Assembly (NCBI GenBank): GCA_048884965.1
Contig: JBHLQH010000001.1
Span: 128,001 to 192,000 of the forward strand
Length of the DNA stretch: 64,000 nt
Direction: 5' to 3'
DNA from: Candidatus Thorarchaeota archaeon
GTDB taxonomy: Archaea > Asgardarchaeota > Thorarchaeia > Thorarchaeales > Thorarchaeaceae
Under the pieces are notes generated by a model. The model made no database searches. It was given only the letters and a program-made list of their open reading frames with translations, and was not told the origin of the DNA. The translations under genes were made by a program, and so were the position numbers. Every line of letters starts with the position of its first letter. Within the stretch, counting starts at the first letter, position 1. Below are positions 59,429 to 63,709 of the stretch, piece by piece.

Positions 59429-59540
59429 GCGGTGAGTGATTCCACTTTTCCAAAATAAGCTACTGATTCACGCGTTTTTCGGTTCTCTAGTTCACAATAG
59501 TCAAGCTATTAAGGGGTTTCTGTATAATTATGATTTACCG

Positions 59541-60812
59541 ATGCCAATGAAAGATATTCCATTTACCCTTCAGATAAAGGACCCCCTACATGGGTATCTT
59601 GGACTTACTCAGTTAGAACAGAAGATCGTGGATTTGCGACTATCTCAGAGATTGCGATACATCAGATCGCCAGCAGGAACACATCTGGTCTTTCCAGGAG
59701 TAGACACATCCCTAATGGGACGTATGCTAGGAGTCATGCATGTTACTCAGATATTTGTGGAATACCTCGGGGGAGAAATGGAAGAGGTCGAGAAGGCACG
59801 GCTCGCGACCATGATGTATTCGCTATCTTTTGGTCCGTGGGCGAATGTAATGGACGAGTATCTAACGACCCGTGGTCTTGATAGAAGAAAGATGGCGAGT
59901 CTTGTAGTACAATCAGGACCAGTTGCTGATATCCTGAAGGATAGTCGCTTTAGTGTAGCTGAAGTGCAGGATTTAGTTCTCAAAGGAGTTCCGATTAAGG
60001 GGATTAGAGTAGATCTTCTTACCACACCAATAAATCCAGAGCTAATCGATAATCTGGAACGGGACGCATATTTCGCAGGAGTTGAGTATGCACAATTAGA
60101 GTTCAGGCGGCTATTTGGTGCTACACGTATCGCGAAGAATAAGATAGCCTTCGAGCGTGGTGCATTGTTCACACTGGAATCCTACATGAGTGCAAACCTC
60201 AATATGTTTGATGCTGTCTACTATCACAAGACGGTCCGAGCTGCTGAACTAATGATCCTTAGAATCCTTGACGAAACGGGTTCACGTTTGATTCCGTATC
60301 CAGGTGATGACTTGGATGCCTTTCTGCTGAGTGATGATTTGACTTCTCATGACATCTTGCTTTCAGTTCAATCTGATGATCCTGAGGGAATGGTCAATGC
60401 CAATAGAATATTCGTTGATTATCGAAAACGGAATCTCATCAAAATGGCTAGCGCCAGGTCCATCTCCAATGATGCATTCTTGAAGAAGCTTAAGACTCCA
60501 GATGGTCTTTTTGCCGTAGAACAGGAAATTGCAGACGAAGTTGGCATTGATCCAAAGAATATCTACGTAGATTATCCTGATCGTCCATCAGTACCATACT
60601 ATCCTGGTAGACATAAAATGGATGATCTCGTTCTATTTGAGAGGGGGTCGTCTGGATATGAATTCTGGCCAGTAGATGAGATAAGCGAGCTGGCAAGAAG
60701 CTATAAGCGTAAGATGAAGACGATCAGAGTTTATACTACCAAGGGCTATCGACAGAAGGTCCGGAAAGTCGCAGATGACTTCCTTGAAAGCATAGACAAT
60801 CCTACACTATAA
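59541..60812 (+). CDS. SAMHD1/dNTPase-like HD-domain protein with degenerate metal-binding motifs
   Basis: IKDPLHGY, QRLRYIR, D.L.RDAYFAGV.Y and M..AVYYHKTVRAAE scaffold present, but the H...HD...D ligands are substituted. ATG 59541 preferred (track start 59436). Confidence 0.85.
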   Translation: MPMKDIPFTLQIKDPLHGYLGLTQLEQKIVDLRLSQRLRYIRSPAGTHLVFPGVDTSLMGRMLGVMHVTQIFVEYLGGEMEEVEKARLATMMYSLSFGPWANVMDEYLTTRGLDRRKMASLVVQSGPVADILKDSRFSVAEVQDLVLKGVPIKGIRVDLLTTPINPELIDNLERDAYFAGVEYAQLEFRRLFGATRIAKNKIAFERGALFTLESYMSANLNMFDAVYYHKTVRAAELMILRILDETGSRLIPYPGDDLDAFLLSDDLTSHDILLSVQSDDPEGMVNANRIFVDYRKRNLIKMASARSISNDAFLKKLKTPDGLFAVEQEIADEVGIDPKNIYVDYPDRPSVPYYPGRHKMDDLVLFERGSSGYEFWPVDEISELARSYKRKMKTIRVYTTKGYRQKVRKVADDFLESIDNPTL

Positions 60813-60821
60813 GGATTCTAG

Positions 60822-61352
60822 ATGCATCGTACATCCACACAATGTATATACAATCACTCCGATACAATTGGATTGGTGCAGAAATTGAGTATGGATACAA
60901 CTATAGGTGAGATGCAGAAGGACCCAAATTTTGGTCTAATCCTTCTTGGCGCACTACTATGGATTGCGGGATCATATATTCCCTTCATCGGTCCTTTTTT
61001 CCTGACCATTGGATTTGGCATTGTATGTACAGCTGCCGCTATCACTTCACTAACGCGGTCCTCTGAAAATGCTGTCTTTGGCCTGCTATTGGGAGGAATC
61101 ATTCAAGTCATTGGGTATTATCTCGCAGGAGTACTTCTCATTGGGCTGATTGCCCCTATTCCGATAGTATTGGGCGGAGTCTTAATCATCTATTTCGCAA
61201 TTCCGTTGGCTATTCAAACTGGAAGAGTTCCATTCATCGAAGAATTCCAAAAGAAAATCGATGCACAAAGACACAAAGATGAGAAAGTCGTTGATGCAGA
61301 TGTCGTCGAATCTGATGATGAAGACAGCTTTGATGATTCAGCAGCGAACTAG
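60822..61352 (+). CDS. Small membrane protein (4 TM, acidic tail)
   Basis: Two similar helical hairpins; the start is probably ATG 60891 or 60912. Confidence 0.65.
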   Translation: MHRTSTQCIYNHSDTIGLVQKLSMDTTIGEMQKDPNFGLILLGALLWIAGSYIPFIGPFFLTIGFGIVCTAAAITSLTRSSENAVFGLLLGGIIQVIGYYLAGVLLIGLIAPIPIVLGGVLIIYFAIPLAIQTGRVPFIEEFQKKIDAQRHKDEKVVDADVVESDDEDSFDDSAAN

Positions 61353-61423: not shown

Positions 61424-63709
61424 GTGATTCTCTTGTTCTCATGTAGCAAGTGCGGAAACGCCCTCTTCATACGTTCAGCTTATCTGAAAGACATGATATT
61501 GAGTCTGGATGTGCAATGCCTCAATGGACACAAGAGTGTTCGTAGAATTGCTGAGCATCAAGTTGAGGATGTTGCTCAAGAGCTATTCAGTCGTATGTAC
61601 AACTGCTTAGATTGCGGATACACCATGATGGTAGTTGGTTCTGAATCACATGGTGAGATTACAGAAAGTATTTTCCTGTGTCCGAATCATGGCCCTCAGT
61701 ATCGAGAATTTCCAAGCAAATATCTTGGGCACGTAAATCTTGCAGGAGCTGACCTTGATCCCTACATCGCGATCAGAAATTCATTTCGCTGCAAAGAATG
61801 TGGACTTGTGTATGCAGTAACTGATGTTGTAGAACGATCGGGAATACTTGAGCTTGCGACACGTTGTGCTAATGGGCATAGGGATACAAAATATCTTGCA
61901 CCTCAAATTGACGAAAGCATCTTGAAAAGAATACTACAACGTATCGTTCATTGTGATCGTTGTGGTCTTCCTGGACACATCTCGACAATAGAAGAGAGGA
62001 AGAAGGAAACTCGCTTGGTTGCTCTTTGCCCTACTCACGGTGAATCCAAGAAATCCATCCCCTCGAACATGCTGGCAATCGTACAAGCAGCAGTAGCTGA
62101 GATCCCTGACGATGCTGTCGTGCGTTCAATGTTGACTACCTCCAAATGTCATAGACCTCTGGTAATTCGAGAAATCGAAGAGACCTATTCCGGATACAAA
62201 TTCAAAACTATATGTCCTGGTAGAGGAAGCACTGGGGACTTTGTAATTCCTGTGAATTGGAATGAAAGAAACAATGAACTTGTTTCACAGTCCGTTCTTA
62301 CGTGCTCAGAATGTGGACTACAGACCCATATCCTTGAAGGAAGAAAAAAGAAGACCAGCATTGAATTCAAAGTCGTCTGTCCTATTCATGGAGTTATGCT
62401 CCGAGAGACCCCTCATGATATATTTGAGATTATCAGGAACACGTCAGCAGAATTCGATAGAATGCCATCACTGATTAGAAGCCTTGGATGCCAGGAATGT
62501 GGACTTCCCCTCACATTGCGTGATGTTGAACAGAAACGGAATCTCGTAGAATTCGACATGGATTGCAGAAATGGGCATCGCACAAAACGATTCTACGTAC
62601 CTAATATGGATCAAGATTCTCTGATTGGTCTTTACAAGAATCTCTACAAATGTCCCGAGTGCTACGATCCTGTTGATTTGGTTTACACAAAACCCGAAGG
62701 GAGAGAAACTCGGGTTGTGCTCCTTTGTCCTCTCCACGGCAAGCAAGTTCTAGATGTACCTGATAATCATGCGAATGCAATGAACCTTGCTTATGCTGAG
62801 ATCAAAGAAGATCGGATGAAACCTCGAATCGAAGCTATTCAGGAGGACCCTGCAGTTGAGCTTGAGGCTCGAACAGAATCGTCTGATATTCCACTGAAAC
62901 AAGTGGATGTTCTACGAGGGTGCGAAATTATTGGTGGTAAATTCGACTTCAAGGTAAAAGTAGCTAATAATACGGACTTCGTGATTACAAATGTGACAGT
63001 CAGTATAGTTGCATTTCCGCAGGATTGCATGGAAATCGGCGGCGAGAATGCCAAGACCATATCTCGAATTGAGGTAGGTGGGTTCAGAAGCCCCTCATTC
63101 ACTTTCTATCCTACGAAGGATTGTGTGCAAGGGAAAGTCGTGGCGACTGTTTCATATATTGATTTCAGGGATCAACTTCATACAATCCAGGTCGAGCCCT
63201 ATCTTATCAGATCTGTGTGCGACCTGCTCAAACCATCAAAAGCCACATCGCAACAATTTGATTTGATTTTGACGAGTCTCACAAAGGCTGGAGAAGAGCA
63301 AACCCTAGAGTGGAATCCAAAGATTCTCTTCACCAAGGCTGAGAAACTCCTTCCAGCTAAAAACTTCCATATAATTGATACTGATGAGAAGATCATCTCA
63401 GGTCAGTTCATAGGAACGATTCGCGGATATGCAGAAGGAAAATACACCGGAAAGAAAGTCGCTGTTGTTTTTCTTATTTCAGGTCCTGAGAATGGCCGCA
63501 ATTCAGCTGTCAAAGTCGAGGCACTTGGTGAGGATATCGCCATGCTTCCGACAACAATAGATGAACTGGCAGAAACGATGGATTCATGGATTTGTCTTCG
63601 ATGCGGTGCGCCGTTGGATACTGAGCAGGTTGATGAACTTGGTAAAAGGCAACCTATCAGATGCAGATACTGTTCACATACATTGACCATGGGGCTCTAT
63701 TTGATGTGA
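61424..63709 (+). CDS. Multi-zinc-ribbon repeat protein fused to an adaptin/coatomer appendage-like (Ig sandwich + platform) domain and a terminal Zn ribbon
   Basis: 8 repeats of CxxC-x21-C(xNGH|PxHG), one degenerate; then FKVKVANNTDFVITNVTV...GKVVATVSY.D...SVCDLLKP...QQFD; ends with CLRC...CRYC. Confidence 0.75.
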   Translation: MILLFSCSKCGNALFIRSAYLKDMILSLDVQCLNGHKSVRRIAEHQVEDVAQELFSRMYNCLDCGYTMMVVGSESHGEITESIFLCPNHGPQYREFPSKYLGHVNLAGADLDPYIAIRNSFRCKECGLVYAVTDVVERSGILELATRCANGHRDTKYLAPQIDESILKRILQRIVHCDRCGLPGHISTIEERKKETRLVALCPTHGESKKSIPSNMLAIVQAAVAEIPDDAVVRSMLTTSKCHRPLVIREIEETYSGYKFKTICPGRGSTGDFVIPVNWNERNNELVSQSVLTCSECGLQTHILEGRKKKTSIEFKVVCPIHGVMLRETPHDIFEIIRNTSAEFDRMPSLIRSLGCQECGLPLTLRDVEQKRNLVEFDMDCRNGHRTKRFYVPNMDQDSLIGLYKNLYKCPECYDPVDLVYTKPEGRETRVVLLCPLHGKQVLDVPDNHANAMNLAYAEIKEDRMKPRIEAIQEDPAVELEARTESSDIPLKQVDVLRGCEIIGGKFDFKVKVANNTDFVITNVTVSIVAFPQDCMEIGGENAKTISRIEVGGFRSPSFTFYPTKDCVQGKVVATVSYIDFRDQLHTIQVEPYLIRSVCDLLKPSKATSQQFDLILTSLTKAGEEQTLEWNPKILFTKAEKLLPAKNFHIIDTDEKIISGQFIGTIRGYAEGKYTGKKVAVVFLISGPENGRNSAVKVEALGEDIAMLPTTIDELAETMDSWICLRCGAPLDTEQVDELGKRQPIRCRYCSHTLTMGLYLM

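Follow-up and report, generated by a model that had tools for sequence, protein, structure and literature searches.

The origin of the coats used in eukaryotic vesicle traffic is still debated in studies of eukaryogenesis. The ear domains of clathrin-adaptor and COPI coats are the recruitment hubs of these assemblies, and a gene from an Asgard archaeon raises the question of whether such an ear can exist, and what it might do, on a protein built in a different way. The gene lies near the end of a 64,000-nucleotide stretch of Candidatus Thorarchaeota archaeon DNA (assembly GCA_048884965.1, contig JBHLQH010000001.1, positions 128,001 to 192,000 of the forward strand; hereafter the window, whose own numbering is used throughout). 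A preliminary description made from the letters of the window had proposed that positions 62903-63709 encode an adaptin/coatomer ear-like domain, composed of an immunoglobulin (Ig)-like sandwich and a platform, that is fused to an array of zinc ribbons. As set out below, the fold and the family of this ear are well supported. We also consider it rather probable that the complete protein is a cytosolic, adaptin-like scaffold whose ear is homologous, though divergent, to the AP and COPI appendages and is a probable docking hub at the membrane face, although the hub function, the membrane-proximal site and any role in trafficking or sorting are matters that we infer.

Positions 62903-63709 correspond to residues 494-761, the 3' end of an open reading frame (ORF) of 761 amino acids (aa) that begins with a GTG start codon. 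This product, which we call the rod-ear protein, is predicted to have the following parts.

61424..63709, + strand: whole gene, a 761-aa soluble protein; zinc-ribbon rod, hinge, ear and terminal zinc ribbon in that order (ORF list, translation)
61424..62821, + strand: rod, or 'trunk', aa 1-466, eight zinc-ribbon-plus-helix units (regular-expression positions, AlphaFold2 (AF2) model)
62822..62899, + strand: hinge, aa 467-492, an acidic, proline-containing disordered linker of 26 aa (model confidence, alignment)
62903..63217, + strand: ear lobe 1, aa 494-598, an Ig-like β-sandwich with the motif GFRSPxFxFxPTKDCVxG
63218..63247, + strand: linker between the lobes, CDLLKPSKAT, aa 599-608, with the D..P of the coat-ear junction motif
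63248..63583, + strand: ear lobe 2, aa 609-720, a platform with FDLIL in its first helix and a GKYTGKK hairpin
63584..63706, + strand: terminal zinc ribbon, aa 721-761, W-x-CxxC-x19-CxxC (alignment, weak Pfam zinc-ribbon matches)

This ORF is a real, conserved gene and not a chance reading frame, because its C-terminal 268 aa match over 215 protein clusters at E ≤ 1e-3, almost all of which bear a Thorarchaeota label, because an exhaustive phmmer search of 1.84 billion representatives returns 400 representatives at 50% identity, because a family profile finds matches in 77 of the 85 genomes of the source organism's own family, and because the C-terminal part is modelled with a mean predicted local distance difference test (pLDDT) value of 89.8. 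Scanned against 400 genomes of the phylum at a cut-off of E ≤ 1e-10, the same profile matched 218 genomes, several other families among them, and left at least 16 families without a match, counts that may be low for divergent ears given that the profile was built from Thorarchaeota sequences. The source genome carries two ear-gene copies by this measure, and orthologues of the rod-ear protein range from 738 to 790 aa. By ordinary annotation the protein is hypothetical, because Pfam, NCBIfam and PDB sequence searches with the full protein and its C-terminal part yield sub-threshold zinc-ribbon matches only; its relatives have been named 'RPC12/RpoP zinc ribbon' or 'hypothetical protein [Candidatus Thorarchaeota archaeon]'.

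The case for an ear begins with two independent AF2 models. The first covers aa 494-761, takes as input an alignment (A1) of 32 rows, mostly Thorarchaeota-labelled ears, and is the source of the pLDDT value given above. Its parts are, in order, a nine-strand β-sandwich (model residues 1-105), a platform (residues 116-227) that runs helix, strand, helix, four strands and long helix, and a small zinc ribbon (residues 229-268); a short linker lies between the first two. The second model, made at full length from an alignment (A2) of 40 rows, has a pLDDT of 86.5 and reproduces the C-terminal architecture. A β-rich segment of about 110 aa followed by an α/β segment that ends in a helix had been noted from the letters, and the strings quoted for it are indeed found at aa 494-720. 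The β-rich stretch is aa 494-598 (window 62903-63217), and the α/β part, aa 609-720, closes with the long helix. The last 41 aa (721-761), which fall inside the originally noted region, form a separate CxxC...CxxC zinc ribbon. A prediction of a two-copy complex of the ear-ribbon part scored 0.18, below the mark, a value that speaks neither for nor against self-association.

Structure comparisons agree on what this model resembles. In a Foldseek search of the PDB the top match is the AP-2 α ear 1w80_A (E 1.2e-9), accompanied by other α ears, a COPI chain (9qpq_H, 243 residues; TM 0.66/0.72, root-mean-square deviation (rmsd) 3.3 Å over 236 columns), the β2 ear 1e42 and the γ-COP ears 1r4x and 1pzd. 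BBSome subunits, which the preliminary description had also put forward for comparison, come lower in the list, and the top matches are unchanged when the full-length model is used as the query. VIA-align, run independently of Foldseek against 48,161 representatives, gave the following matches.

1w80_A: AP-2 α ear, 14.6, 207 residues aligned
3h1z_A: AP-2 β2 ear, 13.9
1r4x: γ-COP, 12.8
2mj7: AP-4 β appendage, 12.8, platform only, rmsd 2.5 Å over 112 residues
6vbu_9: BBS9, 12.0

Among protein language-model neighbours, the highest score (0.94) belongs to an unnamed Methanobacteriota hypothetical-protein cluster, and every named neighbour is an adaptin/coatomer appendage cluster (0.90-0.84). A generic Ig fold that lacks a platform is not what the model contains: an Ig-like sandwich lobe is followed directly by a platform, and both lobes superpose on a solved ear. 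The fold predicted with confidence for the C-terminal domain is thus that of the AP-2 and COPI ear with its two lobes.

The junction between the lobes offers a further point of comparison. In β/γ-COP and AP appendages and in the BBSome GAE-platform pairs the sandwich joins the platform through the motif D(Y/F)..P......F...W, which is kept in part here. The segment SVCDLLKPSKATSQQFDLILTSL (aa 597-619) spans the junction, which reads CDLLxP-x7-F-x3-L; here the D, P and F stand, and the W is an L. In the A1 alignment (model numbering) C106, L108 and P111 of the linker never vary and D107 and L109 hardly do. Of the 32 aligned relatives, at least 90% keep the F, and at least 90% the L, of the FDLIL (FxxxL) sequence in the first platform helix, although the equivalence of FxxxL to FxxxW is drawn from its place in helix 1 and not from a residue-level structural alignment. 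In AP-2 the platform binds ligands through its FxxxW motif, which β- and γ-COP share, but yeast γ-COP also departs from it with FxxxF (PMC2262067).

Two other motifs mark the Thorarchaeal ears. The lobe 1 motif has an invariant core of F, S, F, C and V, and within it the GFRSP loop of the sandwich (window 63080-63094) has an F and S common to all 32 rows and an R and P that at least 90% of them share. The GKYTGKK hairpin of the platform (window 63437-63457) has an invariant first G and a K, Y and T at the same level of at least 90%. Soluble and membrane-tethered ears alike keep both motifs; the Loki Vps28-C-type and HEAT-type relatives described below have neither. W229, C231, C234, C254 and C257 of the terminal ribbon are nearly invariant. 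One might speculate that the Ser-Pro of the GFRSP loop could be a phosphorylation site. A reading of GKYTGKK as a Walker A loop was discarded, as its residues are not spaced as in GxxxxGK[ST] and it sits in a β-hairpin.

A second line of evidence ties the ear to proteins that are already in the literature. The earlier expectation that Asgard homologues of coat ears had been reported proved right: Vps28 and Vps23 fusions with C-terminal domains of adaptin/COPI subunits and with E3 UFM1 ligase were described in Asgard genomes (Liu et al., 2021; bioRxiv 10.1101/2020.10.19.343400), 'adaptin appendage regions' (IG + TBP) were found in Asgard Vps28-C, longin and TPR proteins (Makarova et al., 2024; 10.1101/2024.02.06.579148), and stand-alone Alpha_adaptinC2 and B2-adapt-app_C domains, unfused to Adaptin_N, were reported in Asgards, where no ear directly downstream of Adaptin_N was found (Eme et al., 2023; PMC10307638). 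In each Loki-type genome our family profile picks out a single conserved protein (about 770-810 aa; E 1e-13 to 1e-17), of a kind in which Pfam detects PCI/E3_UFM1_ligase winged helices and VPS28-C. The profile made from A1 covers both lobes of this Loki protein (model positions 1-227; E 5.7e-17 per genome, 62 bits), and a search of the source genome with the Loki protein alone as query brings up its two ear genes and nothing else (E 5e-8 and 3e-7). Because the profile spans both Loki lobes and the single-sequence matches are reciprocal, sequence comparison gives good support to the view that the Thorarchaeal ear belongs to the published Asgard ear family, that of the Vps28-C/UFL1-type fusions. 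Together, the fold and these intermediates suggest that it is a divergent homologue of the large-subunit appendages of AP complexes and COPI.

How, then, does the rod-ear protein differ from what has been published? It is homologous to the Vps28-C/UFL1 fusions over both lobes and shares with them an ear that is shuffled into multidomain, Asgard-specific proteins, but it differs in its eight-unit zinc rod and in the GFRSP and GKYTGKK motifs, and the 761-aa protein has no Vps28-C, steadiness box, winged helix, longin or other ESCRT domain detectable by Pfam. The Pfam VPS28 model finds no match in the source genome, but this negative carries no weight because the controls were unmatched too. The published Alpha_adaptinC2 (PF02883) list holds entries from Lokiarchaeales, Helarchaeales and Sifarchaeia and none from Thorarchaeia (Eme et al., 2023; PMC10307638, supplementary file 5). 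Many of its Loki entries are about 330 aa long and consist of an ear and a C-terminal zinc ribbon, and like the Thorarchaeal protein the listed entries place a CxxC...CxxC ribbon after the ear, some with an N-terminal ectodomain and a transmembrane helix before it. Unlike the Thorarchaeal ear they reach the Pfam ear model, and none of the entries examined, several of which are incomplete in the file, begins with a zinc-ribbon array. The Meth_adaptin proteins of Methanobacteriales also combine an ear of IG and TBP lobes with a zinc ribbon, but they reside in Vps4/ESCRT-III neighbourhoods (Makarova et al., 2024; 10.1101/2024.02.06.579148), and the rod-ear gene does not. A zinc-rod architecture is not described in the published Asgard-ear papers that we compared, a comparison that did not extend to the asCOG tables. 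What is new is therefore the architecture of zinc rod, hinge, ear and ribbon, whereas ear domains in Asgard archaea as such are already published.

The fusion to a zinc array, and the proposal that zinc-ribbon repeats stand where adaptins have a solenoid trunk, both hold. A regular-expression scan of aa 1-466 finds seven intact CxxC-x(21)-C-x(2,3)-H sites with Cys3His ligands, in which the unit types CxNGH and CPxHG alternate, and an eighth unit (unit 5, around aa 240-275) is degenerate. In the full-length model each of the eight units is formed from three strands and a helix, with block pLDDT values mostly of 81-95 and of 74 for the first block. Weak zinc-ribbon matches in Pfam and NCBIfam are all that the rod elicits, and Foldseek with the full-length model returned no credible fold match for it in the PDB; β-propeller rows were set aside as noise (rmsd about 30 Å). 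The only segment of the full-length model with pLDDT below 50 is the hinge just before the ear, which is variable and P/E-rich in the aligned homologues. Across 11 orthologues from the same family, identity is 76-82% in the ear and 50-61% in the rod, as expected if constraint falls on an ear surface that binds partners. In four of these 11 genomes a second gene directly downstream of the rod-ear gene encodes another zinc-ribbon rod, 30-34% identical, which has no ear match after it.

L030:2302-3666, − strand: downstream second-rod gene
L035:2539-3918, − strand: downstream second-rod gene
L036:9980-11446, + strand: downstream second-rod gene
L039:2435-3793, − strand: downstream second-rod gene

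Where in the cell might such an ear act? The N-terminal partners of the domain in Asgard genomes, which the preliminary description had suggested cataloguing, include ectodomains, transmembrane anchors, TPR, winged helix-turn-helix (wHTH) and HEAT modules. Three examples are as follows.

L002:7-2373, + strand: second ear gene of the source genome, on contig 53
L041:5096-10711 (G355:C2) and L042:3566-10428 (G346:C51), + strand: tandem arrays of 3-4 genes for proteins of 358-495 aa
L018:1297-2754, − strand: 485-aa HEAT-ear protein of another Asgard family (G308:C5, f30)

The contig-53 gene, which is a member of a subfamily about 40% identical, specifies an SBBP-like propeller/PKD-like ectodomain, a transmembrane helix, a basic juxtamembrane stretch, the ear and the zinc ribbon. 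Other representatives place NosD β-helix, SBBP, LVIVD, TSP3 or WD40 parts ahead of the ear-ribbon cassette, or else TPR or wHTH, and further relatives carry one to four N-terminal transmembrane helices before it, some of them in tandem gene arrays. In most of the tandem-array proteins a hydrophobic, transmembrane-like stretch is detected near the N-terminus, with ear and zinc ribbon at the end; the shorter members have a linker with a conserved (K/R)PIPGV(A/S) before the ear, a motif that is absent from the rod-ear protein. The cassette would be cytoplasmic because of the positive-inside pattern and the Cys-ligand ribbon, and its probable place of action is the cytoplasmic membrane face, because relatives tether it by N-terminal transmembrane anchors or carry it as a receptor tail.

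The HEAT-ear protein has N-terminal HEAT repeats (Pfam HEAT_2, HEAT and Cnd1, with Adaptin_N at E 0.009 only), a linker, an ear both of whose lobes are covered by the family profile (74 bits), and a zinc ribbon at the C-terminus, which is the adaptin domain order in miniature. All five genomes of its family have ear-profile matches, and the HEAT-ear protein itself is rare (six protein clusters).

In the role that we favour, a rigid rod of eight zinc-ribbon/helix units would replace the HEAT trunk and would lead through a short, disordered, acidic hinge to a C-terminal ear, with its Ig-like sandwich and TBP-like platform, capped by a zinc ribbon. By analogy with the published Asgard ears, this ear-ribbon end most probably serves as a docking hub for partner proteins, probably by way of short motifs, and the site of action would lie near the cytoplasmic membrane face. 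The protein resembles the AP and COPI large subunits in its two ear lobes, of which the Ig-like sandwich precedes the platform and which are arranged alike, in the position of the ear C-terminal to a flexible hinge, and in the partly kept D..P..F junction/helix-1 motif. It differs from them in the FxxxL sequence, in the zinc-ribbon rod that stands in for the Adaptin_N HEAT solenoid, in a hinge of only 26 aa and in the extra terminal ribbon. Pfam detects no Adaptin_N or HEAT match in the 761-aa protein.

Several observations weigh against this interpretation. First, sequence identity to solved ears is 8-16%, and the family profile matched no ear among PDB sequences. Second, neither the whole protein nor its C-terminal part matched the Pfam models PF02883, PF02296, PF09066, PF08752, PF16381, PF07718 or PF14806 at E ≤ 10, and Pfam appendage models did not match any of ten relatives at E ≤ 0.1. 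Third, the tryptophan of FxxxW is replaced by leucine in the platform. Finally, no ESCRT, GTPase or coat gene occurs in the rod-ear gene's own neighbourhood.

If the resemblance to coat ears were fold convergence, the C-terminal part would be a generic module, an Ig-like domain joined to a helix-grip/TBP-like one and unrelated by descent to the appendages, that serves as the ligand-sensing or nucleic-acid-associated output of a zinc-finger array protein such as a regulator. We regard this as unlikely. The whole two-lobe arrangement matches only appendage-type proteins (AP-2, COPI and BBS9), and the named language-model neighbours are all ear clusters. Moreover, a Helarchaeales protein that by its sequence is apparently of the winged-helix-ear type stands among the Pfam Alpha_adaptinC2 entries (Eme et al., 2023; PMC10307638), and most relatives are membrane proteins rather than DNA-binding ones.

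An alternative at the other extreme is that the rod-ear protein belongs to a true proto-coat or cargo adaptor, a forerunner of AP and COPI that bridges or polymerises on membrane-tethered ears and sorts cargo or bends the membrane. The trunk-hinge-ear layout is like that of adaptins, the ear cassette is also found on receptor tails and transmembrane anchors, and Loki relatives join the ear to VPS28-C, a part of ESCRT-I (Makarova et al., 2024; 10.1101/2024.02.06.579148). However, no μ/σ-like partner, GTPase or ESCRT gene adjoins the rod-ear gene (no search aimed at μ/σ was made), the FxxxW tryptophan is missing, and nothing specific speaks in its support, such that we consider this proposal very improbable. 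We give similarly little credence to a further idea, in which the ear-ribbon cassette is an autonomous, membrane-proximal sorting handle that in Thorarchaeia is hard-wired onto surface receptors and transmembrane anchors, and in which the soluble zinc-rod version is a polyvalent scaffold that gathers such handles or a shared partner. If true, this would point to a primitive adaptor layer that predates adaptins with HEAT trunks.

The genes beside the rod-ear gene suggest one more explanation. Two of them lie immediately upstream.

59436..60812, + strand: 458-aa HD-associated-region protein (Pfam HD_assoc_2, PF19276, E 1e-15)
60822..61352, + strand: small protein with multiple transmembrane helices and an acidic tail (no Pfam family)

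The 458-aa protein has no match to an HD catalytic domain model at E ≤ 0.001. On the downstream side the neighbour is a convergent gene for a UbiX-type flavoprotein. The public runs in which the stretch occurs contain it in sediment-metagenome DNA contigs only, with no RNA run among them. The acidic C-terminal tail (DSFDD) of the transmembrane protein was entertained as an acidic-Phe ligand of the ear and rejected: the Phe motif is not conserved, it is the acidic character that orthologues keep, and five of 11 genomes have no copy of the gene. That the three genes specify a complex in which the ear docks a neighbour is a doubtful proposition at best, for although they are co-oriented with gaps of only 9 and 71 nucleotides and the HD-like gene is directly upstream of the rod-ear gene in all 11 same-family genomes examined, adjacency is weak evidence because the whole region, with its POR, peptidase and UbiX genes, is syntenic in these close relatives, the transmembrane gene is present between the other two in six of the 11 genomes and missing in five, the acidic tail has no conserved motif, and the rod-ear region of the single sister-family genome examined lacks the HD-like gene.

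The rod-ear gene is by itself no demonstration of vesicle traffic. As a divergent ear on a probable cytosolic scaffold, however, it bears on the biology of these archaea in several ways. Throughout an Asgard family an ear overlooked by surveys that relied on Pfam is strongly conserved, such an ear can sit on a trunk-hinge-ear layout made of zinc modules, and the ear-ribbon cassette decorates what would be the cytoplasmic side of many membrane proteins. The rod-ear protein thus represents a concrete, soluble and highly conserved bait with which the partners of archaeal ears may be found.

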